From Gammaproteobacteria bacterium (GTDB lineage: Bacteria; Pseudomonadota; Gammaproteobacteria; CBDBNL01; JAAOII01), in the NCBI GenBank assembly GCA_965209035.1, contig CBDBPY010000001.1, forward strand, positions 1-64,000: DNA of 64,000 nucleotides. Reading direction: 5' to 3'. The translations under genes were made by a program, and so were the position numbers. Below are positions 42,787 to 63,018 of this stretch, piece after piece. The notes beneath the pieces are model-generated. The model did no database searches. It was not told the origin of the DNA and saw only the letters and a program-made list of their open reading frames with translations. Within the stretch, counting starts at the first letter, position 1, and every line of letters begins with the position of its first letter.

Positions 42787-43671
42787 TCAACCCCCTTTGT
42801 CATCTCCGTCATCCACAGAAGCCGACACAATCCTTTGCAAATTCGGCGACGCGCGACGCAAACAACAATCACCTCCAAGCGCACATCCACCCTCACCCTT
42901 CGCCGCCGACATACCCGCCAAATATGCCTCCCTCGCGTCCCCCGGTATAACCACCGGGGCGTTGTTTATGTAAATCATCACCGTCCCCAAATTAGCCGCC
43001 TTACTCAACGCTATAAACGCCCTCGTCTCGTCCGCTATCGAAGCGTCATCAACCTCACCCATCGCAATATCACCCTGACGCATAATCGATAACCTCAACA
43101 ACGACTCCGCCATCGTCCCAAAATCTTGCCGCCACTTCGCAAACTCAGGCAAACACAATATATGATGAATATGATTCTTGATTGTCCCCACCGCCAAATC
43201 CTTGTTCTCCGGCACCGCCTCGTAATACGCCTCAATCGGAGTCAACTCCGGATTCTCCGACATCACCCGACACATCGCATACGCCCTGTTGCTCCACATC
43301 GACTCACTGCACAAACGACGCTTCAAAAATTTCTGACCCTTCGAATTGTCCCTCTTGCTTAAACAATCAGTGCAAAGCGTCGCCGTCCCAAATTTCTGTG
43401 AAGGCGTTCTGCACTTGCTCTTAACCCCGCATTTTTCGCAAACGAAAAAACGAATCCCTTTACTCTGATTCCTGAAAGCCTTCGTCCCTTCATTCTCAAC
43501 CACCCCGCACTTCTTTTTCGCCAACTCATTCGCTCTCCTCATCACCTCCTTCTCGTCATTCGGATTTTTTTTGATCCCTGCGTCTATTTCTTTCAACTGC
43601 TCGCCACCCGGATTACCGGCCGGCTTCTTCGCCGCCCCTCTTCCTGTTGGCTTGGCGGGGGGTTTTGGCAT
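42787..43671 (-). CDS. Terminase small subunit-like protein with zinc ribbon
   Basis: TPIEAYYEA...TIKNHIHHILCLPEF resembles the TerS HTH; CEKC...CTDC. Confidence 0.4.
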   Translation of the reverse strand: MPKPPAKPTGRGAAKKPAGNPGGEQLKEIDAGIKKNPNDEKEVMRRANELAKKKCGVVENEGTKAFRNQSKGIRFFVCEKCGVKSKCRTPSQKFGTATLCTDCLSKRDNSKGQKFLKRRLCSESMWSNRAYAMCRVMSENPELTPIEAYYEAVPENKDLAVGTIKNHIHHILCLPEFAKWRQDFGTMAESLLRLSIMRQGDIAMGEVDDASIADETRAFIALSKAANLGTVMIYINNAPVVIPGDAREAYLAGMSAAKGEGGCALGGDCCLRRASPNLQRIVSASVDDGDDKGG

Positions 43672-49600: not shown

Positions 49601-52600
49601 CTTTTGCCGTCGACGATTTCTCAACCGACACCAACGGCCGCGAAACCAAAATACCATTCCCCGACCACGATAAACCATCGAAAAATCTCGCAAACACCTT
49701 ATTCACCGACGGATCTATCTCACCACCATCTCCCAGCCCAACCGAATCCTCTATCCCCCTATCCGCCAGCATCGCCGACACATAACCCGCAAAATAATCC
49801 CCCATCGCCTCCACCAACGGCTTATCCAACGCCTTCACACTCGCAACCACCTTTTCCACCTCACCCAATCCTATATCCCTGCCCCCATTCAACATCAACG
49901 ACGACAACCAACTACGCGACAAACCATATCCCGACGATAAATCTCCCACATCTCCAAAAGCCCCGCCCAATTTCAATCCCGACTTCGGCGCGCCCACCGC
50001 CGCCGCCAAATCGTGCAAGCCCACATACAATTTCCTGATCTCTTCCTTTCTTTCTCCAACCTTCATCAAACCCTTGCCCACGAAAAATTTCCTCCAATCG
50101 CTAAATCCAATCCATTCATCAATCAACTTCGCCGCGTCAGCGCCGTCAGGTATTTCCGTAGCCGATACATCCGGCGCGCCGACAAGCGACGGGCCCTCTA
50201 TTTCACCCAAATCCCCCTCATCAACGCCTTCGATTCTTTTTGCGTCCTCATCCGTCTTATCCTCCCCCACAACCCCCAAATCCAACCCCTCGCCGCGCGA
50301 ATCGCTCTTATCCTCATCTACCCCCTCATCCTCCACCAATTCGGCTAAAACGCCCTCTTTTGCAGGAGATTCCTCAACAATCGGTTTTGTCTCCTCCTTC
50401 ACCATAACCTCTCCTCTACTCTCAACCTCGCTCGCCGCCGACACCATCTCTTCATTCCCCGCCCGATAACCCAATTTCTTCATCACCACATCTCCCTTTC
50501 CCCCTCCTTTCTCAAAAACCAACACCCGAAAATCAAACTTTGCCCCCATCGACCAGTAATGCGAGCCGTCAAATAGCAGATTCGCCCGCAAGTCATCTCC
50601 CCACTTCTCAAATAATTCTCTGCCCGAATCCTTATCAGAACGCAAGGAATGACCCACTATCGCCACCATACGACCTCCATCACGCAACGACTCCAATCCC
50701 CTATCCAACATTCCAGCCGCTATCCCTGCATCGGGCGCGCGACGACTTGGCAAATCCGCCGAACGCGAAAACGGCGGATTCATAAAAACCACATCAAACC
50801 CCTCTCCACCCATCACTTTCTTAAATTCTCCCTTCGCCGATAACTGATCCTCCGGGCTTATTTCAATCTCCGATCCCGCCGGCAACACCGCACGCAAAAA
50901 TCCCGCCCTTTGCTCGTCGTATTCGTTTGCGTAAATCTTGCTCCCCGATAAAAATACCGCCAATCCCCCTGTCCCCGCCGTCGGCTCAAATGACTTTTCT
51001 CCCTTCCTCGCATTCGCCAATAAACCGCCCAAAAAAGCAATTCGCGGCGGCGTAGAATACGCCTGCATCGACTTCTTGTCCGCCGTCGTCTCCGTTTGCC
51101 GCGGCAACAAATCCTCCAAAATCCCCACCGCACCCATCTGATTCCTCGCCGCCGACCAATCCACTTCGCCCGCCGCGTCCCTCGGTATTGCCGTCAAACC
51201 CATATCCAGCAAATATCTATTCACCCCCGCCTCCAACGACTCCCACAAATCACGCGAATTTAAACCGACCGCACCCGCCGAATTCATACGATTATCCAAG
51301 TCCACCCTGTTCGATATCGGATTCTGATCCCTCATCGCTCCCGACACAACCTGATATGCCGCAGTCATCGACTCAATCATCGACTCCGGCGCATCTCTCA
51401 TCTCCTCCAACCCTTTCTCCTCCTCATAAATCCCCGAATTCAACGCCGCCCTCGCCCTCGCCGCAAATCCCGACATCGCCCCCTCCCATACATCAACCGA
51501 CGACATCTCAATCAACAAATCCGACATCTCGTCAACCGATAACGACCACGCCAAAAACGCAGGCCCGCCGCCCCTCTTACCGCGCGGCTCGAATATCCTC
51601 TTACCCCTCCATTTCGGAATCGAGTATTCCCCCGATCTCCACTGCTCCCTATTCATCGCCCAAAAATCACGCACAACGCCGCGCAACCCACCGCCGCGCC
51701 CGAACACCCACTCCGACACGCTCGCCGAATCTCGCAATTCCAACATAGCCGAATTGTCATCAACCGCAGGCGTTTCGCCGGCCACCTCCACATCTCCCTC
51801 GTCCGGCGCCACCGGCAAATCTTTCGCAAGTGTTTCATCCACTTCGACCTCCGACTCCTCCGACCGCGACGATTCGTTATCCGACAAAACCTTTTCCTCC
51901 TGATTCTTTACCCCGCCCGTCCAAACTTCAATCGGATTAAACTCTCCCTCCTCATAACCAACCACCCCATCTTCACCAGATCCAATATGAAACGATCGCT
52001 TTCTTTCCTCTTTTTCTTCCTCCCGACTAGTATACGATACCTCACCCGAATAATACTTCGGCTTAACCACCACCAACATATCTTCCGCGATAAACGATAT
52101 CGCCTCCAACCCATTCAAAAACACATCGACCTCCGACTTTCCACGCGCTTTCGCCAACTCTCCAATCGCCCGCAAATATCTCGCGTCGACATAAACATCA
52201 GCCCTTTCGTATTCTATCCGCGCCGTTCCCCACTCCATTTTTGGCTTCGAATCTTTATTCTCTCGACGATCCTCTTTCTTAATGCCAATAAGATACCTCG
52301 TATCCTGCACGAAACGCGCCGTCGCCTTTTTCGGAATAACCCGCTCGATTTCTTCCTGATTGTAAAAAGCCACATCGAAATCAACTTCCCCGTTTTTCCG
52401 AAACATAAAACCATCATCCGGCGCGCCGTCCAATGTAGGAATACCAGACACCAACGCCATCGCCTGTTCGTCCGTTGCAACCGCCCGCCCAGCCACGAAA
52501 TATATGCCGCCAAGACTCATTTTTTTCAAATCGCCCTTATTATCAGCCGAAAACAAAAACATCGCCCGCCGCGTCTTTTCGTTCGCCTTGTCCGCCTCCA

Positions 52601-55600
52601 CCGCCGCCGATAGACGCGCACCCTTGTCCGCGTTATCAATCTCCTCTTGCTCTCGCTCGCTCCACATATTCCGTCCGTCGCTCTCCACATTGTCGTCGCC
52701 GCCCTCGGTTTTCTCCTCATTCTCCTCGATCGACTCGATCGACTCGATCGGCTCGCCTGATATCATCTTTTTCCAATCCTCAACCGGCCGAAAATCACCC
52801 CAATTTATCTCAACGAGCAACTTGATAGCCCCCGACTTATTTATATTGTCATCGCTTTGCACCATATCTCCCAACGCCTTGTTGCCCGAAAAAATAAACA
52901 CGCGGTGGTATTCTTCTCTCGCCCGCTCGATTTTTCCCTGCTCGTAAAAACCTATCTTGCTGATATATCCCCACCCCTCATCTCCCACCAAATCATACAC
53001 CATCCGCAAACTACGCGAATCCAACGCAAAAAACTCTTTGCCATCTTCTCCCACAAACGAATAAACATCATTGCCAACCTCTATTTTTCCGTTCAAACCA
53101 ACCTTTACTTTTCCTTCCAACGAAGGCAATCTAAACCTAAACACCGCGCTTTTAACGAAATCCGAATACGAATCAACGCCCTTTTCTCCCGCCTCAAATT
53201 CACCAAGCGTTGCGTCGCCGCGAACACCAACCGAAACTTTCGGATTACTCCTGCTCCCCGACAACTTTATCGTCAAACCGCCTTGCCGCTCGCCATCGAA
53301 GTAATCGTTATCCATATCCATTTTCGGCAACCCGCCAACAGCCGCGTTTGATCCCCCATATCTCGCCCAAGCCAAACCGCCCAACTCATCGAAAAAATCA
53401 TCGGTGTGGCTTATCTCCCAATCACGCGAAAAAGGAGTCAATCGCTTTCGCGCTGACGCAACTTCGGGTTTTAATATGAAGGCGATCGCCTGTTTTCTTT
53501 TAATGCCTGCCTTCGTTTTAGGCGGCTCTTCCTCATCTTTCGCCTTCTCCTCCGCCGACTCCTCTTTCACCGTCTCCTCCGCCGGCGCAACCGGCGGCGC
53601 AACCGATTCCGACACGATTACCCGCTTCTTCCCTCGCTTCTCCACTTTGAGACCAATCGCCTCCGCAACCGCTCCATCAGTTTGCTCGAACGCCACTCCC
53701 CGATTTTTCAAGTAAGACCAAAATTCCTTTTCTTCTCTCCCCTCAAAATTCGGAAGCACAGCCGCCGCATATTTAACCGCCGCCGCATTCGCCTCCTCAA
53801 TCGACCCCGAAAAATTCGCAATCGCCATCGCGCGATTTATCACATCTTCGCCTGCGCCATCATAACCCTGCGCCGACAGCAAATCCAACCACTCCGACCT
53901 CTCCGGCTTTCTTCCCTCCGAATCCAACACCGCGCCGATCGCCTCGTCCCGGCCATCCTCGACATATTCCGTTGCGGCGAGATCGTCGCTCGCCCCGTCC
54001 CCCAATTTATCGATTCTTTGATATTCCGCCAAAAATTCCTTAGCCTCATTCGAATCTGTGGTATTATCGGGCTGGATTTTCGCTTCGCGCCCACCTCCTT
54101 CTCCATCTCCTCGCGAAGTGGAAATCCCTTTTTTCCCCTTAACAATCCTCCCCGACGCTCTCGCGCCGCGCGCCTTGTCCGTCGCCTCCAAAATCGAATC
54201 CAACGCCTTCGCGCCAGTATCTCCCACGCTTTCCGCAAACTGCCGCAATGCCTCCTCGCCGCCCCTTCTCGCTTTGACGAACGCCCGACCCGCCGCCGCC
54301 AATCCCTCGTCGCCCCCAAATTCTTCCCGCGCCGCGTCCGTTGCCGAACCCAATTTTTCATCCACTCGGCGATACTTTTTCGCTCTCCAAACCGCGTGTC
54401 GAGGATGAACGCGGAAACTCGGCGGAACATAGCGACCATCACTAGCCGCCGCCAACTCCGCCCAATCACTCTCGATTTCAATCATCATCGATTCCAACCG
54501 CTCCAATCTCCCCGCCTTTTTCTCCCCTCCGCCTTTTTTCTCCGCCGCGCGAGCCGTTGCCCTATTTTTCACGCCTGCAACCGCCGATTCACCCGATCTC
54601 AATTCGCCCGATAATTTTTCATATCCCTCGATATTCGAGCGCAATCTCTCATCAATCGATTCCATTCCCGACGGCGGGCGACGCGAATCCAACAACCCCG
54701 ACACCAATCCCCGCGCACTGGCCGGAATCGCCGCCAAACCCTTTTTTACATAATCCGGCGCAACTTTCACAATCGCCGCCTCGACATCTTTCACACCACC
54801 AGACCAATTTTCCCCAAGTTGCGATTGCAGACCAGCCACAAAATTTCCGCCGCCGTCCTCACTTTTTCGATCCATCGCCGCAACCGCCGCCGCAAGCGAT
54901 TCCCGCGCCACGTCCGCCGTCGCACCCGGAACATAACCCATCGCCTCCTTGTCCGTCATCGAACTCGGCTTCGCGCCCGACAAAAGCGCGCCGCGTATCG
55001 CCGTCGCCAACTCCGCCGCCGCCCGCTCGTCCGCCCCGCTCGCAATCGCCTCGGCCGACAATTCACCAGCAATATCGCCGGCCCTCGAAACGCGCAACGC
55101 CGCATCCGTCGTTCCCCTTTTCGCCGCCCTCTCCGCTCTCTTATCCCCCAACCGCTTCGCCGCCTTCGCGCCCAAGCCAACGCCCGCCGACACAACCTCC
55201 GCGCTCGCGCCACCGCCCAAACCCCCTGCAAAACCCGCCGTCGCAGAAATCGCAATCTCCTCCGCCGTCGGAAAATCACCAGCCGCAACCGCCCCCGCAA
55301 ACAATTCCGCCGTCTCCTCCGCCGCTTCCTGCCCGGGCTCGAACAAAATCCCCGTCGCTCCACGTGAAACAGCAGGGTAAATTCTACCGCCAAGACCACC
55401 TAAAACCGCCCCCGCTCCGCCGCCAAGAGCCCAAGCAAGAGGCAGGCGCCTGCTTATCTCCGCTTCTCCAACTCCCGCAGTCCTCAATCTTTCCCTCGCT
55501 TCGTCGGCACTAAACGCACCAGACAAAGCACCACCAAAAGTTGCCGCTCCTCCCGCCGGAGACGACAACGCCGTTCCCGCTTTTTGTAGCGCCGTTCCCT

Positions 55601-56210
55601 TTTTCGCCAACGATAAAGCCGCTCCTGCACCGCGAATCGCACCAATTCCAGCGATAGAAAACGGCAAACTTCCAACGCCTTGACCGAGCGCATACTTAAA
55701 ATGATTCGGATTGATCCCACCATCCTCAAAAAACGGCCTCGCCTTCTGCCCCGCCGTATGTGCGTCTTCCTCGACAACATCAACTCCGTCCCCAAATGCC
55801 GCATCGTAAAAATCTTTCGGCAAAGCCAAACCTCTCTTGACTCCCTCACCAAAACTTTCTTTTCCCGATTCCAATAATTCAATGTCTCCCCATCCGCCGT
55901 TTCCATTAGACGGACTCACACCAACAACATCAAATCCGTCGTCCCTGTCCACGATCCCCCAAACCACATTTACCCCTTTCGCATCCGCGAAATCAACTAT
56001 TGCTTGGCCAGTATTCGCGTTTATCGGGATTATAGGTATATTTTTTGCGTCATCGGCGATATCAAGCCGGAATCCGTCGAGCCCGCTCCGCAACTTTGGC
56101 TTTGCTCGCCTTCGACCGCCTGCGGAATATCGATTCCGGATATCACTGGCGATTTGAGGAGCGCTTTGAGACAAGTCAATCGGGGTAATCGGTTCGGGCA
56201 TAAAATTCAT
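43671..56210 (-). CDS. Giant polyvalent DarB-like virion protein (N6-MTase, Strawberry-notch SF2 helicase, metallopeptidase, ADP-ribosyltransferase-like)
   Basis: EPTAGTG/FMNPPF; GWGVGLGKTR, LDESH, YLSGT, SRAGATGLNL, QGLGRSNR; LAHEIGH; NHRT..F..FD...FYFSS...KNPL...GHDAVIF. True start possibly ATG 56201. Confidence 0.88.
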   Translation of the reverse strand: MNFMPEPITPIDLSQSAPQIASDIRNRYSAGGRRRAKPKLRSGLDGFRLDIADDAKNIPIIPINANTGQAIVDFADAKGVNVVWGIVDRDDGFDVVGVSPSNGNGGWGDIELLESGKESFGEGVKRGLALPKDFYDAAFGDGVDVVEEDAHTAGQKARPFFEDGGINPNHFKYALGQGVGSLPFSIAGIGAIRGAGAALSLAKKGTALQKAGTALSSPAGGAATFGGALSGAFSADEARERLRTAGVGEAEISRRLPLAWALGGGAGAVLGGLGGRIYPAVSRGATGILFEPGQEAAEETAELFAGAVAAGDFPTAEEIAISATAGFAGGLGGGASAEVVSAGVGLGAKAAKRLGDKRAERAAKRGTTDAALRVSRAGDIAGELSAEAIASGADERAAAELATAIRGALLSGAKPSSMTDKEAMGYVPGATADVARESLAAAVAAMDRKSEDGGGNFVAGLQSQLGENWSGGVKDVEAAIVKVAPDYVKKGLAAIPASARGLVSGLLDSRRPPSGMESIDERLRSNIEGYEKLSGELRSGESAVAGVKNRATARAAEKKGGGEKKAGRLERLESMMIEIESDWAELAAASDGRYVPPSFRVHPRHAVWRAKKYRRVDEKLGSATDAAREEFGGDEGLAAAGRAFVKARRGGEEALRQFAESVGDTGAKALDSILEATDKARGARASGRIVKGKKGISTSRGDGEGGGREAKIQPDNTTDSNEAKEFLAEYQRIDKLGDGASDDLAATEYVEDGRDEAIGAVLDSEGRKPERSEWLDLLSAQGYDGAGEDVINRAMAIANFSGSIEEANAAAVKYAAAVLPNFEGREEKEFWSYLKNRGVAFEQTDGAVAEAIGLKVEKRGKKRVIVSESVAPPVAPAEETVKEESAEEKAKDEEEPPKTKAGIKRKQAIAFILKPEVASARKRLTPFSRDWEISHTDDFFDELGGLAWARYGGSNAAVGGLPKMDMDNDYFDGERQGGLTIKLSGSRSNPKVSVGVRGDATLGEFEAGEKGVDSYSDFVKSAVFRFRLPSLEGKVKVGLNGKIEVGNDVYSFVGEDGKEFFALDSRSLRMVYDLVGDEGWGYISKIGFYEQGKIERAREEYHRVFIFSGNKALGDMVQSDDNINKSGAIKLLVEINWGDFRPVEDWKKMISGEPIESIESIEENEEKTEGGDDNVESDGRNMWSEREQEEIDNADKGARLSAAVEADKANEKTRRAMFLFSADNKGDLKKMSLGGIYFVAGRAVATDEQAMALVSGIPTLDGAPDDGFMFRKNGEVDFDVAFYNQEEIERVIPKKATARFVQDTRYLIGIKKEDRRENKDSKPKMEWGTARIEYERADVYVDARYLRAIGELAKARGKSEVDVFLNGLEAISFIAEDMLVVVKPKYYSGEVSYTSREEEKEERKRSFHIGSGEDGVVGYEEGEFNPIEVWTGGVKNQEEKVLSDNESSRSEESEVEVDETLAKDLPVAPDEGDVEVAGETPAVDDNSAMLELRDSASVSEWVFGRGGGLRGVVRDFWAMNREQWRSGEYSIPKWRGKRIFEPRGKRGGGPAFLAWSLSVDEMSDLLIEMSSVDVWEGAMSGFAARARAALNSGIYEEEKGLEEMRDAPESMIESMTAAYQVVSGAMRDQNPISNRVDLDNRMNSAGAVGLNSRDLWESLEAGVNRYLLDMGLTAIPRDAAGEVDWSAARNQMGAVGILEDLLPRQTETTADKKSMQAYSTPPRIAFLGGLLANARKGEKSFEPTAGTGGLAVFLSGSKIYANEYDEQRAGFLRAVLPAGSEIEISPEDQLSAKGEFKKVMGGEGFDVVFMNPPFSRSADLPSRRAPDAGIAAGMLDRGLESLRDGGRMVAIVGHSLRSDKDSGRELFEKWGDDLRANLLFDGSHYWSMGAKFDFRVLVFEKGGGKGDVVMKKLGYRAGNEEMVSAASEVESRGEVMVKEETKPIVEESPAKEGVLAELVEDEGVDEDKSDSRGEGLDLGVVGEDKTDEDAKRIEGVDEGDLGEIEGPSLVGAPDVSATEIPDGADAAKLIDEWIGFSDWRKFFVGKGLMKVGERKEEIRKLYVGLHDLAAAVGAPKSGLKLGGAFGDVGDLSSGYGLSRSWLSSLMLNGGRDIGLGEVEKVVASVKALDKPLVEAMGDYFAGYVSAMLADRGIEDSVGLGDGGEIDPSVNKVFARFFDGLSWSGNGILVSRPLVSVEKSSTAKVAKARRVQRDLSGEGSFVSFDPTSIVSLDQISGATEKPKNADIVETMNMAGVMPPLVAESSRIGGDLSQVYDYQAAIGLQALDAFDRLVKLRNEFKGEEGMPDGDSVEVRGGYLAGWGVGLGKTRLAGLVAREVMRVSKQKRAVMFAPREVIDQAADDLSAVGAISGESYIRVGDKKADADLGVVENGFYALTYEAFSVGARGSAFKTSARYEQLNRMMGNDYDGVIVLDESHLVSNLGEEKEEGRKLKGSARAKLMERFLMRHPRARVLYLSGTAIKNVNSLGHLSRLGLFGVGDEYPFETADEIMREVSSDEGSRQGIGEGIALGAKERGVFSSLQQSEFGIENEAYPIELDDRMQLKSERAGELMLDIFWAVEEASESQLWAAGIEKEKMRKADANRGVRRSAIFGLFTRIQKALEIESKLPHIAPKSGGLVREMLKKGMRVILQGDSTGEADLKKSMLRALSEGDDISEVFDHNPTIAFENVVRAIFPIEKKHAVAGKDGSVSLETKFYTVSEKGRGYRQVEAEKVLTDSGKVRLFFPAIKDNKGEIKERKRSAGTLDFDPLVHFINAKTFLVSLVDPKLYEEREEALSLIKRIGIPLPPLDIIRGNLGDMVGEVTGRSAMLRFDANGKLLGGVAKRSGKANKEDMSLWRRGWGKNAKGEDSINTKKVLIISRAGATGLNLGDDPRETIFGEGLPGEAADSPVRSRKVAHIPIDFGWQVVAATQGLGRSNRVRQSTKPHRVIPYVSNDPTEARFMGAMLSKLREMGGVTRASGKGYTEGMDFLSGFDMFDKYGNEAVKNVLMSNRGIFYYLGYDFGVDKETYPAFDKVMNRVKFLPISKSSPMVRGWEKELSLMDEEKELKKKSDRAESKKNRNEKDETAIYDYRRLVWLKERLEMTRDRGSDELNRLATAFNRTDFVGTVLRERERLIEMDKRIGRYSEGIVKESADMIEAGESVSVDDFEFREVVMKSRRATISMEDIMSRISGDSIGGNKSEESYFFAVNRLGNPVAVVVWERDVTGYYRRPQMAGVDNTVVDAVRIVSPDGRESFREYSEGEIERLKKGKDGGKNLPMRAGEYKSGDKIFKEAWSERMESKSFAVSRKLVIPFGGDTLRQWKRLKKKTPGVSGSDSSLRLRQFTTRGGETFVGVWLRGKMESAAREMMSGKDTGLSMSAEELMKGVDNGETAIFETMRISSVGSGASRYYKIDPGATAVESDLSFLGDGWELMRNGRKVWGRSKSRGSVMRILEMKSGLVRLLGSGGVERFSIPRGVIGDKPFWEVTDEGAKKLGELEDGVINIRKIWIENGWRSQVRGIFPRDYFHNLADTKLLEYDGAGGYPEIVPDEDQINKITAKLRDKFQELLEYASEWRSMLEDEYDRLLEEEDYSKSEIRELKSDAKKTEKYAVKMIKEEMAKIRYANRWFRKKWPSDERYSIPSRDNYTARERRRFTDAAPVFFATADGDGSVVVGERVEARLPAKVILAEYPNVVRSMSDSGKAEVYAAHGGVERWKDAVEAIDPKKKRESLRIAGRLNEFFEGSGMRDSFGLDLRIQSDGGRGGGSFDPAARVIKIALDLESSEGEEEAMSTLAHEIGHVFYEHLSGRDRERVEEMMPEWKKRYGADIKRSVEETKSRNPGVSDWSWLEEEEAFGYAIQDWHRKGGDGIISRIMRFLRRLSGWLRREGLSSADEAADLFSRVLRGDVKIEDLSGGRARKIREMGGVSGGLVFSIPPPKKAIDENGKYNPNLDPRLKYAPLSNEIWNHRTNEEFPDFDIRKTKTASHFYFSSTPGGETMYGKRLIRARIAAKNPLVIGDLFEGVRDDGTFGPIDPPPWLKEWALSEYGDEVSDYESDYDREERENSGIDDDSAIDDDDGNSDDERERTDEQKKRAALQLFWEDTGTLYQSGGRGRQDSLINEALGNGHDAVIFPDIGKSDEESGIESAHTSLALEDPLLIINADTGEQMSAAGNQVGEE

Positions 56211-56236
56211 TTTACCATTAGTAGGGCGCGTATATG

Positions 56237-56263
56237 AAAAAATCCCCCGCCGGAGCGGGGGGA
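56237..56263 (-). terminator. Intrinsic terminator
   Basis: ATCCCCCGC-TCCG-GCGGGGGAT-TTTTT. Confidence 0.75.
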
Positions 56264-56282
56264 TGGGGGGGAGAGATGCGGA

Positions 56283-56579
56283 TTAGAAGCGGTGATACCC
56301 GGCCGCGGCGGCGCGGTGTCGGGCTTCCCATCGATCGGGATGGGAGCGCATAGCACGGGCGCCAACTTCCACGCAAGTATCGCCGGAGTGAGAGCCGGTC
56401 TCGATTTTCGCCGGAAAACCGCACTTGATGCAAGCGAGCAATTCGCTCGAAAAAGTATTTGTCCCATTTTCAGCGCCGCCGTGGGATAGGGTGCAAAGAT
56501 CGCCCCCGCACTTCGGGCATTCGCCCGAATACACCATCTTGCGTTGCTGGTCCCAGTTTTGGGCTTTTTGATTTTTCAT
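56283..56579 (-). CDS. Zinc-ribbon protein (ACUGGAA-leader gene G)
   Basis: CPKC...CIKC. Confidence 0.65.
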   Translation of the reverse strand: MKNQKAQNWDQQRKMVYSGECPKCGGDLCTLSHGGAENGTNTFSSELLACIKCGFPAKIETGSHSGDTCVEVGARAMRSHPDRWEARHRAAAAGYHRF

Positions 56580-56700
56580 TTTTGTTTTCCAGTTTTGGAT
56601 TTGTCCTCCCAACTTCCAGTCGTCGGGATTCGACAACTCTATTATATCATACAACGCCAAAAATAAAAAACCCCCCGCCTACGAAGCCGCAAGCGGGGGG
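56577..56700 (-). promoter_or_regulatory. Terminator, extended -10 promoter and ACUGGAA hairpin leader (copy G)
   Basis: CCCCCCGC..GCGGGGGG-TTTTTT; TGATATAAT; hairpin 56602-56635. Confidence 0.7.
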
Positions 56701-56721
56701 AGAGGAGAGGGGCGGTCGCAA

Positions 56722-57138
56722 TCAGTCCGAATCCATAAAGACCTTTTCATCTACGCGACAACCGCAACCGCCGCAAACAATTTCATCGCCTTTATCGACA
56801 TCCGGGTTGTATCCGGTGGTCTGGTGTCTCCGCCAAAATCGAGTGTGGCCGCACCCGCTACACCACTGCTTGTTATTTTCGAACATAACTTTGGCCGTGA
56901 TTGGGCTTGCGCGGGGGTCGGGCGCGGCGGCTGTGTCGGTTGGGGGGTAGTGATCCCAATGCGCGCCGGCATCGATACTTAATCCCAAGTCATTGATTGC
57001 CGCAATTGCTTTTATGGCAATCTCTCGCTGTGTCGGAAAGGCGCGGCAAGCCGCCTCCTCGCAAATGCGACTCAGCACACATTCGGCCTTTCGAACGATC
57101 TCGCGCTCGTTGTCGCTGATGATGATTTGATTTGTCAT
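56722..57138 (-). CDS. Hypothetical protein with C-terminal zinc ribbon (leader gene I)
   Basis: CSGC...CGGC. Confidence 0.65.
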   Translation of the reverse strand: MTNQIIISDNEREIVRKAECVLSRICEEAACRAFPTQREIAIKAIAAINDLGLSIDAGAHWDHYPPTDTAAAPDPRASPITAKVMFENNKQWCSGCGHTRFWRRHQTTGYNPDVDKGDEIVCGGCGCRVDEKVFMDSD

Positions 57139-57250
57139 TGGTGTTTCCAGTGTTTGATGTCCCGCCAGATTCCAGTTCCAGCAGTCGACAACTCCATTAT
57201 ATCACAAAGAGACAAAAATAAAAAACGCGGCGACACACTTACCGCCGCGT
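57136..57250 (-). promoter_or_regulatory. Terminator, extended -10 promoter and ACUGGAA hairpin leader (copy I)
   Basis: ACGCGGCG..CGCCGCGT-TTTTT; GTGATATAAT; hairpin 57158-57190. Confidence 0.7.
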
Positions 57251-57268
57251 CCCCCGTTGGTGATTTTA

Positions 57269-57949
57269 TCAGGGCAGAGATATTGTCTCGTCCCCACTCT
57301 CAATCGCGGAGCGGCTTATAATTTTGCCGTCTTTTACCACGATTATGATATCTTGCACCCCATCCGAATTATATCGATTAGGCAAATGCTCATAAGCGGC
57401 GGTAGCGAATCCGCCAAGTTCGTCATCGTCCAACTCTTTCGATATCGATTCCCCCCACACATTCCCCAATTCCCCCACCTTTTCCAGTTTGTCGATCTTG
57501 GAAAAGAGCGCCGATAATTTTTCGATTCTGCCGCTTTCGTGATCTCCGGCATCGGCCTTATCGGTTTCGAAAAAGCAATCATCTCCGCCATTCTCGATTT
57601 TCTCGTCGACGACCTGCTCGTAGCATTCGCCGCCGGCGATTGCGTTTTTAGCAATTTCGGATATCTCGCTCCAAACATCGGCGCGCGCTTGTATCCAAAA
57701 ACGGATAACTTGGATTCTCGTCGGCATCTGCCCCAAAAGAACGCCGCGATTTACGAAAACGCCATCAATGTGGGAGGGATAAACGGAGAATATCATCGGC
57801 GCGATAGCCAACAGCGCGGCGGATTCGGAGTCGGCGACGATGAAGCCGAGCGCGGCCGTGGCGACCGCCAATAACGCGGCGACGGCAACGGCGATAAATC
57901 CGCTTTCCGAATCATCGTTGCCGTCGCCGCGAGGATGATCAGCGATCAT
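57269..57949 (-). CDS. Membrane-anchored hypothetical protein
   Basis: ATGA coupling; N-terminal GFIAVAVAALL...AALLAIAP module. Confidence 0.65.
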   Translation of the reverse strand: MIADHPRGDGNDDSESGFIAVAVAALLAVATAALGFIVADSESAALLAIAPMIFSVYPSHIDGVFVNRGVLLGQMPTRIQVIRFWIQARADVWSEISEIAKNAIAGGECYEQVVDEKIENGGDDCFFETDKADAGDHESGRIEKLSALFSKIDKLEKVGELGNVWGESISKELDDDELGGFATAAYEHLPNRYNSDGVQDIIIVVKDGKIISRSAIESGDETISLP

Positions 57950-59325
57950 CGATTCCCGCACTCTTGGAGTGTTTTGATATTTTTGGAGTGTCCGCGCTTT
58001 AACGCTTCGGTTTCCGTAATACCAAGCAAACCCGCAACCCTTGAAGCGTTTTTGTGCTCCAATTTGACATGTCTAAAGTTCCATCTCGCAAGGACGGGAG
58101 ACAAGTGGCCGTATTTCGAGATCTTATATGTGCGAATCTCTATATCATCGTAGTCGCGGCGAATCAACATATTAAATAAATTGTGGAAGCGGTCTCCACG
58201 CTTTATCGCCGAAATCTCCCAAGCCGCTGATTCGCGGTTATTCCTGCCGCCATAGCAACAGCCGCAATCATAGACAAGTTCGACTTCAAATCCGGCTTCT
58301 TTCGCCGCGTTGGTGATGAAGTCAATGACTTCGTCGGGTTTGGTGGCGGCGGCAAGCGGCGCAACCGCCAGCAACGCGGCAACGCTGTCAATCCCAAATC
58401 CCGCGACGATGAAGCCGATTACGCCCGCCGCGACCGACAGCAATGCGGCGACGGCGATGCCGATGAAGCCGTGTGGGGCGCGGCTGGCGCGGAAAAGTTG
58501 GGCCGCTGGCGAAACCCATGCGTAATCTTCGGAAACGCCCCACCAGCCGCCATAATCATCTCGCGATTCTTTCCTCTCCACATAAAAGGAAATCATCTCG
58601 TCGCGGGCATTGTCAGGGCTACCCCAACAAGCAATTTTCGCGCCGATTTTTCGCGCCGCCACATCATTCCAAGCGCGGAACAAAATGCCGTGATTCGCTT
58701 TCCCAACCGAAACTCGATAGAGCGAATACTTTGCCGCGATAGACGGTTGCGACGGGCAATACCCTTTGTTGACATGCCAACCCTCTATCGGGCGATACAT
58801 CGGAAGCGGTGCCCGCTTGCCTGCTTTTGCCAGTGCAGCAGGCGCGACTGCCGCCAGCGCGAACGACGCCAGATCGATCGCCAAATCGATGACGAACGCG
58901 CCCGCCACCAGCACACAACCGATCGCCGCGCACATCAGCGCGAGCGCAACAAAATCGACATTCCCGCGTTGCGCGGCGCGCTCGACGGTCTCCGCTTTGG
59001 GCGGGGTTTCCGACGACCGCGAGGGCGCGTCGTAGTCGCCGGCATCTCCAAGTTTTTGTTCCTGATTGAACAGATACGCAGAGTCGACAATCTTCGGCAA
59101 ATCGCCGTGAAGCGTCACCAATTGTTTCTCCAAAGACGAATAACGGCGATCGCCGGCTCTAATGCCGCGCATACGATAGAACACAGCGCAGTCACGGACA
59201 GCGTGAAGAATAATGGCAATGCGCCGCTTGTGCGCAACAATCTGGCGATTGTTGATCTTGCCGATATTGGCAAGGGGATATTCGCGGGCGGTGCGGCCTT
59301 GCCGCGTGTTGCTTTGATTTTCCAT
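57946..59325 (-). CDS. Modular hypothetical protein with two internal hydrophobic modules (leader gene H)
   Basis: MENQS... start; soluble domains separated by two related hydrophobic hairpins. Confidence 0.7.
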   Translation of the reverse strand: MENQSNTRQGRTAREYPLANIGKINNRQIVAHKRRIAIILHAVRDCAVFYRMRGIRAGDRRYSSLEKQLVTLHGDLPKIVDSAYLFNQEQKLGDAGDYDAPSRSSETPPKAETVERAAQRGNVDFVALALMCAAIGCVLVAGAFVIDLAIDLASFALAAVAPAALAKAGKRAPLPMYRPIEGWHVNKGYCPSQPSIAAKYSLYRVSVGKANHGILFRAWNDVAARKIGAKIACWGSPDNARDEMISFYVERKESRDDYGGWWGVSEDYAWVSPAAQLFRASRAPHGFIGIAVAALLSVAAGVIGFIVAGFGIDSVAALLAVAPLAAATKPDEVIDFITNAAKEAGFEVELVYDCGCCYGGRNNRESAAWEISAIKRGDRFHNLFNMLIRRDYDDIEIRTYKISKYGHLSPVLARWNFRHVKLEHKNASRVAGLLGITETEALKRGHSKNIKTLQECGNR

Positions 59326-59461
59326 TTTTGCTTTCCAGTTGTTTTGGATTTGTCCTCCCGATTTTCCAGTTTCGGGATTCGACATTTTCATTATACTCGC
59401 ACCAAAACAAAAAGTCAAATCGAAAAAAACCGCCGAATCCTATAGCAAAAATCGGCGGGTT
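59323..59461 (-). promoter_or_regulatory. Terminator, promoter and ACUGGAA hairpin leader (copy H)
   Basis: CCGCCGA..TCGGCGG-TTTTTTT; TTGACT-17-TATAAT; hairpin 59351-59384. Confidence 0.72.
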
Positions 59462-59568
59462 GAAAAGAATGCCGGAATCTCACCGGCTACGAATTTTCGG
59501 GCTGGAAATCCCACGGCCTCGTTGCCGCTCGGAGCGCGCGCTCCAGTGCTTACTACTCCTTTTTCGTC

Positions 59569-59604
59569 GTTTCAATCCACCCCCGCCCTGCGGCGAGGAA
59601 AAAC
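59569..59604 (-). CRISPR. Solitary CRISPR repeat-like unit, type I-C-like
   Basis: GTTTTTCCTCGCCGCAGGGCGGGGGTGGATTGAAAC: 8-bp hairpin followed by the 11-nt TGGATTGAAAC handle typical of I-C repeats; intergenic. Confidence 0.7.
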
Positions 59605-59713
59605 GCGCCAAAACATTAATCACGCCGCCGAAAAAACATAATCGATAAAATCGAATGCGAGATCGAAAGCGAAAGCGAAAGCCGCCAGAGTCAAGCGCGG
59701 CTTGTTTCGCTTG

Positions 59714-59926
59714 TCATTTTTCGGTATCCGATTCGGTATCCGATTCGGGTTTTTTAGGGGCGATGAAAATAAGGGTATAAACAACCCCCGCTCCCACCAG
59801 CGCAACGCTACCTGATACAACCAGAGCAAACGCAAAAAGGTCGGCGGATAGCCGCCTTAAACCATCCAAAGCAACAGACCCCGCGATTACCGCAAAGAAT
59901 CCGATTCCTGATCTTGATATTTTCAT
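59714..59926 (-). CDS. Small membrane protein
   Basis: Two hydrophobic segments; ATGA coupling. Confidence 0.55.
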   Translation of the reverse strand: MKISRSGIGFFAVIAGSVALDGLRRLSADLFAFALVVSGSVALVGAGVVYTLIFIAPKKPESDTESDTEK

Positions 59927-60096
59927 CGCGCACCCCCGACAAAATCAGGGCATAGCGACGGCGGCGGGCTTGCAACGCGGCAGAATTTGTCGACGGCGAG
60001 CGAGTCAAGCCACGATACAAGAGCGAATGCGAAAAATATCGCAAGCACGGCGCAACAAAGCGCGACCGCGATCGATTCTTTTTTCGTCCGCTTCAT
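59923..60096 (-). CDS. Small single-TM protein
   Basis: MKRTKKESIAVALCCAVLAIFFAFALV; ATGA coupling. Confidence 0.55.
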   Translation of the reverse strand: MKRTKKESIAVALCCAVLAIFFAFALVSWLDSLAVDKFCRVASPPPSLCPDFVGGAR

Positions 60097-60281
60097 CTCG
60101 GCAACCCCTCGCCAGCAAAAACGCGGCAAATGCTTCCACGATGATCGACAAACCAAGATTTGGGAGCAGGGCGCGGCGGGTTTCGCGCGTCATCGATCAA
60201 CGCCTTAAACGATGTCATCGCTTCGCCGATTGTCTCGTCGGCATCTACCGATTCGGGTTTTGTGTTGGGGTTTTTTTCCAT
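60093..60281 (-). CDS. Small hypothetical protein (repeated-leader gene D)
   Basis: MEKNPN... behind the conserved leader. Confidence 0.6.
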   Translation of the reverse strand: MEKNPNTKPESVDADETIGEAMTSFKALIDDARNPPRPAPKSWFVDHRGSICRVFAGEGLPR

Positions 60282-60365
60282 TTTGATTTTCCTCATTTTT
60301 GGATTTTTCGACGATCGGAATATCGCCGTTATTGAGATTTTACACCCAAAAAAAAGACAAGTCAA
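60279..60365 (-). promoter_or_regulatory. Promoter, hairpin and conserved RBS leader (copy D)
   Basis: TTGACT-17-TAAAAT, hairpin CGGCGAT/ATCGTCG, AAATCCAAAAATGAGGAAAATCAAAATGG. Confidence 0.78.
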
Positions 60366-60403
60366 GCCCCCTCTTACACCATTCCTCGTGATATAATAAA
60401 TGC

Positions 60404-60528
60404 ATTGTCGTAAGGCCGATAAAGCGGTGAATTTCCATTTCATCTCCTCTCGGTGGATTAATTGATTCGGGGCGGTTTTCTTGCGATAACCCGATTAAAA
60501 AGAGACGGCTTCGGCCGTCTCTTTTTTT
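60404..60528 (+). ncRNA. Candidate ~125-nt small RNA with anti-SD loop
   Basis: Plus-strand GTGATATAAT at 60388-60397; terminator GAGACGGC-TTCG-GCCGTCTC-T7 at 60502-60528; folds with closing stem TTGTCGTAAGG/TCTTGCGATAA. Confidence 0.65.
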
Positions 60529-60542
60529 GATCCGCGCGGCGG

Positions 60543-60821
60543 TCATCGTTTCGGCGCGCGCGGTCGTTTTTTGGCGGCTCGCTCGCGCGGCATAAACACT
60601 ATGCGCCATTCGTCGCCGACACGCTCGCATTCGACGAAAATATCCACCTTAAACCCCAACTTTTTCGCCGCCGCTTTAAGTAATCCATCGCAACCTTTCA
60701 GCATACTGACAAAATCGCTCGCTATTATGCCGCCGTCGGCGCGCCCGCTTTTGAAAACAAGCACCATTTTTTCGCCTTCCTGTAAGCAGGCGGCGGCTTC
60801 GCGGGGGGTCGGTAAACTCAT
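60543..60821 (-). CDS. Hypothetical protein
   Basis: ATGA-coupled ORF. Confidence 0.55.
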   Translation of the reverse strand: MSLPTPREAAACLQEGEKMVLVFKSGRADGGIIASDFVSMLKGCDGLLKAAAKKLGFKVDIFVECERVGDEWRIVFMPRERAAKKRPRAPKR

Positions 60822-61036
60822 CGATCACCCTTGCGGATTTTGTCGGAATTGATGAGGACTTTTAACGGCAGAATCGCGGCATCGATCCGCTGAACGGCGA
60901 TAGCGTCGCCTTTTTTGTCGGCGCTCCTGCGCTCGAATTTCATCGCGTCCAGCGCCGCGACCAACTTATTGGCGGTTATTTGGTCGAGAGTGTGAATCCT
61001 TTTTATTTCAAAAATGGTCGGGGTTGTGGCTTTCAT
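60818..61036 (-). CDS. Hypothetical protein
   Basis: TGATG-coupled ORF. Confidence 0.55.
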   Translation of the reverse strand: MKATTPTIFEIKRIHTLDQITANKLVAALDAMKFERRSADKKGDAIAVQRIDAAILPLKVLINSDKIRKGDR

Positions 61037-61242
61037 CAGCCAAACGCCCATACCGCGAGTGCGGCAACGGCAATTCCCAATGCAAGAAGAGACGAGTTAA
61101 ATATAACTCCTACTATCCCGCAAAGTTTTTCCAGATCCGGAATGATTTTTTCATTCCGATATCTCAAAAGATGACAAGCAACGATGAGAGAAGTAATCAT
61201 CGAGCCGATTAAAAGCCCGATGAAGAAAATCAAACCGCTCAC
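61036..61242 (-). CDS. Small two-TM membrane protein
   Basis: Two hydrophobic helices; GTGA coupling. Confidence 0.55.
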   Translation of the reverse strand: MSGLIFFIGLLIGSMITSLIVACHLLRYRNEKIIPDLEKLCGIVGVIFNSSLLALGIAVAALAVWAFG

Positions 61243-61676
61243 TCTTGCCCCTCGATTTGCGCCGACGATCCCACGACAGAGTTATACGCCGCGTCGTGCC
61301 GATCGCCCGCCGTCGCCTTGCGGATAACTTCCTTTGGAAAAATTTCGATGAAAAAACTTCCGCCGATAACACCCCGACAAAATATATCCGGAGACAACTC
61401 TCCATTATCTCTAATTGCGCTGACGGTCATCAGCGGGCCGCCCGACTTCAGGCAGACAACATCGCCCGCCTTAAATTTGTCGGCTTGTGATAACACAAAA
61501 CGATCGCCCACTTTGAGCGGACACTTGCACCAAATATATCCAACGCCGCCGCCAAGATTTTTCGCATTTGGCGCGGGATAAACGGCAGAGTCGTATTCGG
61601 CGACGAGTTCTTGAATGTAGAGGATTTTTCCTTCTACATCGTGATAGGCCAAATAGCCGTTAGGGTTGCTTTCCAT
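61239..61676 (-). CDS. YodC/DUF2158-domain protein (repeated-leader gene E)
   Basis: FKAGDVVCLKSGGPLMTV. Confidence 0.7.
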   Translation of the reverse strand: MESNPNGYLAYHDVEGKILYIQELVAEYDSAVYPAPNAKNLGGGVGYIWCKCPLKVGDRFVLSQADKFKAGDVVCLKSGGPLMTVSAIRDNGELSPDIFCRGVIGGSFFIEIFPKEVIRKATAGDRHDAAYNSVVGSSAQIEGQE

Positions 61677-61760
61677 TTTGATTTTTCCTCGTTTTGGATT
61701 TTTGGAGATCCAGCGCCTCCATTTATTTTCGATTATACGCTCTTTTCGTCCGTTTTTCGA
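61674..61760 (-). promoter_or_regulatory. Promoter, hairpin and conserved RBS leader (copy E)
   Basis: TCGAAA-17-TATAAT, hairpin TGGAGG/TCTCCA, AAATCCAAAACGAGGAAAAATCAAAATGG. Confidence 0.72.
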
Positions 61761-62116
61761 GTCCGCGATTTCGGGTCGCGCGGCGGGATTTTATCGAGGA
61801 TTGATTCCAAAATCGCCTCCATTTTTTTGATTTCTTTCTTGACTTCCTCGATCTCTTCGTGCGCCGATTTTGTGGAATCTCGCAATTTCTTGATTACGCC
61901 GTTCGCTCCTCTAAGCCAAGGCAACATAAATACAAGCCGCCAGCCCTGCGACAACGAAAACCCAACGCCCCAAACTATCGCCAGCGCGACGGCGATTGCG
62001 AGAATCGCCCGCAACGCCGGAAACGGCGAAAGGACGGCAAATAAATCCTCGAACGCCATAATAAGGCGGTCGATAATATCCAAAGCAAATTGCTCGTTCG
62101 GCGTTTCGTCTCTCAC
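61733..62116 (-). CDS. Membrane protein with coiled-coil C-terminus (holin-like candidate)
   Basis: TM segment followed by a charged coiled coil. Confidence 0.55.
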   Translation of the reverse strand: MRDETPNEQFALDIIDRLIMAFEDLFAVLSPFPALRAILAIAVALAIVWGVGFSLSQGWRLVFMLPWLRGANGVIKKLRDSTKSAHEEIEEVKKEIKKMEAILESILDKIPPRDPKSRTRKTDEKSV

Positions 62117-62264
62117 AGCCAATCCCCTGCTTCATCGCGGCGGCGATTTCTGATCGATTCCTCCAATCCCAAATCCAGCGCGTCGCCTTGCGGATAGCGT
62201 TCTGGAATAAAGAGCTTGCGCGGCTTGCAGTCCCTTTTTTGTAGCCAATGGCGGTGCGCTCTAT

Positions 62265-62312
62265 CCGCTTCGCTTTCCGCTTCGCTTTCCGCTTCGCTTT
62301 CCGCTTCGCTTT
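62265..62312. repeat. Tandem repeat (CCGCTTCGCTTT)x4
   Basis: Four exact 12-bp copies abutting the mini-array. Confidence 0.95.
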
Positions 62313-62410
62313 GTAATAAACCTGCGCCTGCCCGCAATCCACAACTATATCGTCGGCGGAGCGGTGCGATGAGAGATTTTAATAAACCTGTGCCTGCCGC
62401 AATCCACAAC
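62310..62410 (-). CRISPR. Mini CRISPR array, type II-C-like: repeat(35)-spacer(30)-repeat(36)
   Basis: GTTGTGGATTGCGGCAGGCACAGGTTTATTAAAAT (62376-62410), spacer 62346-62375, GTTGTGGATTGCGGGCAGGCGCAGGTTTATTACAAA (62310-62345). Confidence 0.75.
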
Positions 62411-62422
62411 TGTTGCATCGTT

Positions 62423-62527
62423 TTATCGCCCGAAAACCTTTTTGATTTTGTCGATTGCGTTCGCCCACAAAATGACAATCGCCAACAAGAGCGTGCCGAA
62501 AACCCCTTTGACGGATTGCAGGTTCAC
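62423..62527 (-). CDS. 34-aa single-TM peptide
   Basis: GTGA-coupled to the Tad1-like gene; VFGTLLLAIVILWANA. Confidence 0.45.
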   Translation of the reverse strand: MNLQSVKGVFGTLLLAIVILWANAIDKIKKVFGR

Positions 62528-63018
62528 CGCTCCAACTTGCCTTCCACGCCGCGCTTTACGCGGTCGCGGCGGCGGCTCGCAAGGGCTTCGATTGCTTCCT
62601 TTGCCTTTTCGATCGCAAGCGCGTTTTCGTCGCAAGCGAATTTTCCGTCTTGGAAAATTTTAACCGGCGCAATAGCGGCGGCGATAAGGGCTTCGGGCGT
62701 TATGCCGTTGAGTTGCGGGTCTTTGTCGGGCGTGATATTGCCTTGCCGCGCGACAACTCGATCGAGCAGGTCGATGGTGAATTTTTGGATTTTGACAATA
62801 TCGTCGCGCGACGAATTTGAGGGGTTATTCGCAATGAAGGCAAGGGCATCAGCATCCGAAAGATACGCCTTGTCTGGCGGCAAAATGAAAAAATCGATTT
62901 TGTCGCCGCCGGGTTCTCCTTCGGCAACAGCCGAATAAAATCCGATAATCCGCGCGTTGGCGGGGGAGACGGCGCGATGGTCGCTGATTATGGAGAGGTG
63001 GAGAGGGAGGTTTGCCAT
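62524..63018 (-). CDS. Tad1/Acb2-family anti-defence sponge-like protein
   Basis: GEPGG...NGITPEALI...FQDGKFACDENALA....EA...L..RR.DR..RGVEG matches the Tad1 helical hairpin (FQAGPF..RENA.AL..EEA..W..RR..DR..R.V.G). Confidence 0.75.
   Translation of the reverse strand: MANLPLHLSIISDHRAVSPANARIIGFYSAVAEGEPGGDKIDFFILPPDKAYLSDADALAFIANNPSNSSRDDIVKIQKFTIDLLDRVVARQGNITPDKDPQLNGITPEALIAAAIAPVKIFQDGKFACDENALAIEKAKEAIEALASRRRDRVKRGVEGKLER

Follow-up and report, generated by a model that had tools for sequence, protein, structure and literature searches.

The window analysed in this study, a stretch of 64,000 nucleotides, covers all but the last part of contig C2 (65,717 bp; 54% GC), of which it is the first 64 kb and which belongs to a Bcep22-like podophage. 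Genes encoding a portal, a terminase, an internal virion protein, a RecT-like protein and a DNA methylase were identified on this contig. The nearest cultured relatives of the portal were Bcep22-like Burkholderia podophages and an Ochrobactrum phage, at 21–24% identity. An open reading frame of 4179 aa on the minus strand (43671–56210) contained AAA_34 and Helicase_C_4 domains, of the Strawberry-notch helicase type, within residues 2243–3010, and we take its product to resemble the giant DarB-like virion proteins of Bcep22-type phages. No homologue of its first 700 aa was detected among long proteins. Similarly, IMG/VR searches with the first 600 aa of this giant protein or with a 459-aa neighbour returned no phage relatives, and neither did a search with the leader motif described below. 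The phage is virulent-looking; no integrase or resolvase (tyrosine or serine recombinase) was found on the contig.

The element of interest is located in a small early operon, and it lies on the minus strand together with all nearby genes. The operon starts with a sigma-70-like promoter (60337..60365, minus strand; TTGACT-17-TAAAAT, 10/12 matches), followed by three overlapping small open reading frames. The first gene encodes 62 aa (60093..60281, minus), its start being assigned from the conserved leader and shared first codons. The second encodes a hydrophobic protein of 57 aa (59923..60096, minus) and its start overlaps the stop of the first, and the third encodes a hydrophobic protein of 70 aa (59714..59926, minus), whose start overlaps the stop of the second. 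None of the three proteins gave a lead in Pfam, PHROG or Atlas, and the 62-aa protein, which had no match in PHROG or Atlas, was assigned to no known family. The last stop is followed by a 109-nt untranslated stretch (59605..59713, minus) with three CTTTCG repeats, and then by the 36-nt unit that is the subject of this analysis. No convincing promoter was found within the 109 nt 5' of the unit, which is therefore most simply regarded as part of the 3' tail of the three-gene operon. The unit is in sense orientation, and its position, closing an early phage operon at the 3' side, agreed with the original prediction.

The layout downstream of the unit was also located by coordinates, as had been claimed. 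A 24-nt segment, previously named a pseudo-spacer, directly follows the unit (59545..59568, minus), and is succeeded by a 14-nt GC palindrome able to form a hairpin (59531..59544, minus). Two small hairpins lie between this palindrome and a strong intrinsic terminator (59423..59458, minus), which starts 110 nt after the unit and in which the stem (59458..59430) is followed by seven T residues (59429..59423) that mark the transcript end. A small GC hairpin at 59471..59487 (minus) is weakly terminator-like and falls within the variable segment 59487–59530. The element ends at the promoter of the next transcription unit (59390..59418, minus; TTGACT-17-TATAAT, a sigma-70 match of 11/12).

The operon promoter belongs to a promoter-plus-leader module that occurs in five copies on the minus strand, at approximately 59418–59341, 56671–56592, 57226–57126, 60365–60264 and 61760–61659. 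These copies were grouped from the repeat families D1, D4, D13 and D18. Each consists of a TTGAC-17-TAtAAT promoter, a conserved 5' leader and similar first codons (ME.N..), and the module heads successive small early units. Contigs from the sequencing runs X1 and X4, which are introduced below, join the module to other sequence, and it is therefore taken to be common to related phages.

The unit (GTTTTTCCTCGCCGCAGGGCGGGGGTGGATTGAAAC) occupies 59569..59604 on the minus strand and reads from 59604 to 59569. The original prediction of a 36-nt repeat-like unit was thus upheld, with its orientation corrected to the minus strand. It is composed of a U-rich 5' tail of 5 nt, an 8-bp stem (59599..59592 with 59587..59580), a GCAG loop (59591..59588) and an 11-nt 3' tail, TGGATTGAAAC (59579..59569), directly after the GC hairpin. 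The core of the hairpin comprises 7 bp, pairing positions 7–13 with 18–24 and including one G-U pair, and reaches 8 bp with a closing U-G pair at 6/25. The claim that the hairpin ends exactly 11 nt from the 3' end holds if this closing pair is counted; otherwise the distance is 12 nt. The predicted fold of the unit alone has an energy of −15.5 kcal/mol, and the same stem forms when the whole 301-nt tail is folded at minimum energy; that larger fold is unremarkable overall (z −1.25). The unit is intergenic: the preceding stop is at 59714, the following start is at 59325, and the sole open reading frame spanning it is a 47-aa GTG frame without a ribosome site.

A search allowing up to three mismatches found a single copy of the unit in the window, and no further copy in the rest of the assembly. 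Local alignment against shuffled flanks revealed no partial second repeat within 100 nt on either side. The best score in the 100 nt downstream was 18, which was reached by 111 of 300 shuffles, and in the 100 nt upstream 16, reached by 284 of 300. The unit is therefore counted as solitary. The decayed second repeat that had been suspected downstream was rejected for the same reason, its score of 18 being no better than that of the shuffled flanks. The exact 12-mer at the 3' end, GTGGATTGAAAC, is expected by arithmetic approximately 0.008 times in 2 × 65.7 kb, and 1.7 sites are expected when a mismatch is allowed. As a control, 12 singleton sites of the tail motif from other genomes were inspected, and a repeat-like hairpin was present at none of them.

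The claim that cas genes are absent was borne out on the phage contig. Searches for Cas1, Cas5d, Cas9 and Cas3 on C2 returned no match, PADLOC found no match among its 10 large open reading frames, and Pfam detected no Cas family in 21 open reading frames.

Two CRISPR-DR models of Rfam aligned end to end over exactly 59569–59604, below threshold. The scores were 15–17 bits against gathering values of 37–45 bits; as they are far under gathering, the alignment is a hint and not a match. The unit shares the plan of CRISPR-DR9 (RF01322, 37 nt), namely a short 5' tail, a long GC stem, a loop of 4 nt and a tail of 11 nt that ends in GGAUUGAAAC. However, it aligned to this model with 15.1 bits (gathering 45; E 1.5), and its stem is one pair shorter and different in sequence.

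The arrangement of a GC stem-loop followed by an 11-nt handle ending ATTGAAAC is also that of type I-C repeats. A looser pattern returned 76 loci, whose spacers happen to end in GTTT, and these served as a sample of I-C repeats; 74 of them were multi-copy 32-nt I-C arrays ending in the tail of the unit. The unit has the identical 12-nt 3' end (GTGGATTGAAAC) after a GC-rich stem, which is 7–8 bp long in these repeats, but differs from them in its length of 36 nt, its U-rich 5' tail of 5 nt, its stem sequence and its 4-nt loop. Its identity to the ordinary 32-nt repeats of the 76 loci was 19–23 of 32 positions (at most 72%), and it had neither the typical I-C length of 32–33 nt nor close similarity to known I-C repeats. 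Of the earlier description as type I-C-like, the tail and the hairpin plan were retained, whereas the length (36 against 32 nt) and the identity of no more than 72% did not support it. As length and similarity do not fit and the cognate cas genes are unseen, the unit is not to be filed as an I-C repeat, and an I-G-like or other class 1 origin of its repeat appears as plausible as I-C.

Searches of public collections were performed to locate a cognate array. A strict IUPAC pattern of the unit gave no site in IMG/VR, none in one genome each of 185,579 species, and one in the JGI metagenome contigs. The latter, a 30-nt site (L092, 5193–5222), was ruled out as a cognate repeat: it falls where an ordinary coding sequence begins, on a metagenome contig of 67.6 kb that has no relation to the phage, and is a coincidence, which illustrates that strict repeat patterns arise by chance in GC-rich DNA. 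By blastn, the unit had chance matches only in the PLSDB plasmids and INPHARED phages. Altogether, no assembled array with the repeat of the unit was detected in IMG/VR, the 185,579 species genomes, the JGI metagenome contigs or PLSDB.

The only other contig of the assembly is a chromosome (C1; 2.18 Mb, 49% GC), and its CRISPR content was analysed together with that of its relatives. Arrays of the unit type were absent from the five genomes of its family and the six genomes of its order, and the portal gene was likewise not found in the genomes of the order. Among 401 genomes of its class, a tally that includes the unpublished genomes G043, G145 and G311, the tail motif occurred at no more than three sites per genome, none of them array-like, the motif being too strict for ordinary I-C repeats. 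The chromosome itself carries one CRISPR locus, a Cas12a-type (V-A) array of approximately 90 repeats (C1:1956422–1963322) beside its only cas1. No Cas5d, no Cas3 or Cas9 above cut-off and no type I system were found on it. None of 87 spacers of this array matched the phage. One of its spacers matches the same chromosome over 32 of 32 positions (C1:2062514–2062545), a self-target that perhaps lies in a prophage. Two copies of the Cas12a repeat core (at most three mismatches) occur outside the arrays of C1, one at C1:1963784 and one on the reverse strand. A solitary repeat of the Cas12a type was sought in the phage and was not found.

The two contigs also differ in their expression signals. Shine-Dalgarno sequences preceded 9.6% of open reading frame starts on the chromosome (control 5.8%) and 30% on the phage (control 4.5%), and consensus sigma-70 promoters occurred at 0.46 and 6.1 per 100 kb, respectively, a 13-fold difference. 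Given these differences, the association of the two contigs is treated as a binning link and not as a shown host relationship, and they may not be a host–phage pair. The proposed decoy is probably aimed at a host other than this co-binned chromosome.

Sequencing-run contigs were then considered as a source of related repeats. The runs X1, X2 and X3 are three runs of one sample and contain the stretch almost completely, while X4 is a run with another organism label and from another study and contains 15% of the words of the stretch. No RNA run was among those listed as containing the stretch. Contigs from X1, X4 and a further run, X5, were aligned to 56000–63000, where X5 contributed nothing, and the results given here come from the pieces and loose ends listed, with a further 143 pieces and 33 loose ends beyond these. 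In X1, the summed depth was 1954 in the bin that contains the unit, compared with approximately 95 for the phage; the same bin also contains short tandem repeats, which are able to attract other contigs. One X1 contig matched the phage up to 61825 and continued with 27 nt that correspond to the first 27 nt of the unit, identical at 25 positions. The two differences are T>C at position 6, which turns the closing U-G pair into C-G, and G>A at position 17, which alters the last loop base, so that the variant repeat keeps the fold. In X4, 10 of the 13 aligned records were at least 99% like the phage, at a depth of 2–3, and a 96-nt contig with a depth of 6 matched exactly 59569–59604 at 33 of 36 positions (92%), its other 60 nt being foreign to the phage. 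The 3' border of one run-contig alignment coincided exactly with the end of the unit.

The junction at 61825 appears to show a phage-matching spacer followed by its repeat, read in the forward sense. The corresponding protospacer would lie approximately at 61790..61825 (plus strand), of which the loose end of the X1 contig fixes the right border only. The bases upstream of plausible 33–35-nt spacers ending at 61825 were TTT or ATT, not TTC, the PAM named in the original prediction. No repeat-spacer-repeat joint for the repeat of the unit was present among the run-contig joints listed. The run contigs with the unit-like repeat may be arrays, as suggested by a single loose end, a short contig and the summed depth. 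As X1 is probably the sample from which the window came, it does not count as independent support. The original prediction was to be given up if no similar repeat existed in any host array. Near-identical repeat-like DNA was in fact found in non-phage contexts in two samples, contexts that are presumed to be arrays. The description of the unit as solitary and derived from a CRISPR repeat was supported.

A second X1 contig of the segment 59487–59530, with about equal depth (105 of 212), differed by five substitutions and six indels, which points to a co-existing variant phage or a paralogous copy. The adjoining 30 nt (59531–59560), comprising most of the pseudo-spacer and the palindrome, were unchanged in this variant contig.

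A second CRISPR element, with a repeat of another type, was identified 2.7 kb upstream of the unit. This mini-array (62310..62410, minus strand) consists of repeat A (62410..62376), a 30-nt spacer (62375..62346) and repeat B (62345..62310). A 34-aa hydrophobic open reading frame (62423–62527) precedes it, with its stop 12 nt before the start of the mini-array. Its repeats are 35–36 nt long, are alike at 33 of 36 positions with one indel, and are unrelated in type to the solitary unit. The run-contig depth bins at 62311–62345 were far hotter than the bin of the unit, at 1054 and 5692, and contigs ran from 62345 back to 62311 with at least seven different inserts of 28–31 nt in X1 and one in X4. 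The mini-array repeat is therefore part of an explicit array in X1 and X4. It gave no match in Rfam, and no copy in C1, its order, IMG/VR or plasmids; the 30-nt spacer had no target in C1 or C2. Repeats of 36 nt with 30-nt spacers and self-complementary ends presumably reflect the geometry of II-C and VI-B arrays.

Directly after the mini-array, four 12-nt GCGAAGCGGAAA repeats (62261–62308), found as the inverted pairs I3–I6, are complementary to the three CTTTCG repeats (59660–59680) that precede the solitary unit, both being read on the minus strand. RNAs carrying these two sets of repeats could pair.

An RNA anti-CRISPR of the Racr type is a repeat mimic directed against a CRISPR system, and we consider that the solitary unit acts in this way against a class 1 system, I-C or I-G-like, with a probability of roughly 0.55. 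According to this reading, the unit would be transcribed early as the 3' untranslated tail of the three-gene operon. The RNA would keep the stem-loop and the 11-nt tail that are read by class 1 repeat-binding Cas endoribonucleases, namely Cas5d in I-C and Cas6-type enzymes in I-G. Cas5d leaves an 11-nt handle. Host Cas proteins would bind the decoy and probably cut it at the base of the hairpin, and the lone repeat, if in excess, would hold them in non-productive complexes without a useful guide, so that interference against the phage would be weakened. Such a decoy would have a purpose, as the phage seems to be targeted by the very CRISPR system that the unit mimics. Transcription of the unit, its binding by Cas proteins and the resulting inhibition are put forward here by analogy. 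Repeat processing in I-C is carried out by Cas5 (PMC10651486), and the Racr mechanism is demonstrated for I-F and I-C (PMC10651486, PMC11656645). Racrs give aberrant sub-complexes of Cas proteins. The unit is probably an RNA decoy, a known trick that is met here in a new phage.

Three other explanations in which the unit derives from a CRISPR repeat were weighed against the Racr-type decoy. The unit might be the start of a crRNA-like guide (Cracr/crlRNA). Cutting within the unit would then release a short crRNA mimic, made up of the handle, the 24-nt pseudo-spacer and the palindrome, which would load host Cascade and steer it without cleavage onto a host promoter, either that of cas genes or that of a CRISPR-guarding toxin. 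Viral crlRNAs, including I-C ones, are described in 10.1101/2024.10.29.618823, and the constancy of 59531–59560 in the X1 variant contig, next to a segment with five substitutions and six indels, would suit a conserved guide. The defining repeat-spacer-repeat layout is nonetheless missing, no second copy scoring above the shuffles. Furthermore, in C1 and C2, which probably do not include the true host genome, the pseudo-spacer matched at chance level only (best 14/15, E 9.7). We regard this guide as unlikely.

It is similarly improbable that the unit, having no role as a decoy, is a neutral relic acquired when the phage recombined with a host array, or provides homology by which the phage recombines into arrays. 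The differences between the unit and the run repeats (2 of 27 and 3 of 36 positions) would suit a drifting copy. Yet both of the visible changes spare the pairing, the unit is sense-oriented inside an early transcript, and a second CRISPR-derived element is placed in a comparable way, 12 nt behind a small gene. A recombination role also lacks a tyrosine or serine recombinase on C2. An attP role for the unit was ruled against on the same ground, as it would be left without its enzyme when no integrase or resolvase is present on this contig.

We also considered a two-pronged, RNA-only counter-CRISPR kit, which we hold to be doubtful. Here the repeat, its 24-nt follower and the GC hairpin would give a truncated crRNA that reprograms Cascade as a silencer instead of only sequestering it, and the mini-array would subvert a second system. 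If true, one phage would subvert two co-resident CRISPR systems of an unassembled host. In this two-pronged arrangement, located in the early region, each RNA element would directly follow a very small gene for a membrane protein.

Finally, a chance origin, in which a structured 3' untranslated region contains an ordinary GC hairpin that happens to precede TGGATTGAAAC, is very improbable: rare coincidences are to be expected when very many windows are scanned, the strict pattern also matched one unrelated coding sequence in metagenome contigs, the 301-nt tail fold is not unusual (z −1.25) and the Rfam alignments are below threshold, but copies identical at 25/27 and 33/36 positions occur in other contexts in two samples, one with its 3' border exactly at the end of the unit, and none of the 12 control singletons of the tail motif had such a hairpin.

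Solitary repeats acting as RNA anti-CRISPRs are established, and have so far been found by near-identity to catalogued repeats. The unit described here would escape such a screen, since its cognate repeat is present in no assembled collection searched, and only raw-run contigs from the same community link it to a repeat. The absence of the cognate repeat from every assembled collection searched, the absence of any close phage relative among those sought, and the presence of two different CRISPR-derived RNAs in one small early region make the case noteworthy. If the Racr-type decoy is the correct reading, phages of poorly sampled hosts carry such decoys. The 36-nt unit, with two natural variants that keep the fold, further offers a compact test case. 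The questions it raises are which Cas protein reads the hairpin-plus-tail, and whether the sequence downstream of the repeat has any influence.

Known solitary repeat units provide the closest comparison. The SRUFinder search (PMC10651486) asks for identity of 90% or more to a bona fide CRISPR repeat across no less than 90% of its length, an intergenic position, no partial repeat above 70% within 100 bp and no cas genes nearby. The unit is intergenic, is solitary within 100 bp, and has no cas genes found on C2. Its identity is 33/36 (92%) to the X4 contig and 25/27 (93%) to the X1 contig, where 75% of the length is visible; in both, the array nature of the matching repeat is presumed.

Like RacrIC1 and the other Racrs of PMC10651486, the unit is a single intergenic repeat mimic of a phage, without cas genes, and its hairpin and tail are those of a class 1 repeat. 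RacrIC1 is described there as lying just downstream of an acr gene on the same transcript, and the unit is likewise sense-oriented and downstream of small genes on apparently one transcript. However, RacrIC1 lies 11 nt after its upstream gene, compared with 109 nt for the unit, and the genes upstream of the unit, unlike that of RacrIC1, are not known Acr families. In contrast to these Racrs, the match of at least 90% comes from run contigs only, and the co-binned chromosome has no matching system.

A second comparison can be made with the viral mini-arrays and Cracrs. The element at 62310–62410 resembles viral CRISPR mini-arrays (PMC11656645) in its two repeats, its one 30-nt spacer and its lack of cas genes, whereas the solitary unit, having no second repeat, is not a mini-array of this kind. 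With the Cracrs of 10.1101/2024.10.29.618823, the unit shares a phage-borne, repeat-derived nature; I-C Cracrs exist, and Cracrs are aimed at host CRISPR, as is proposed here for the unit. In a Cracr, a short spacer with a match to a host cas or toxin promoter lies between two repeat-like flanks, whereas the unit presents one repeat.
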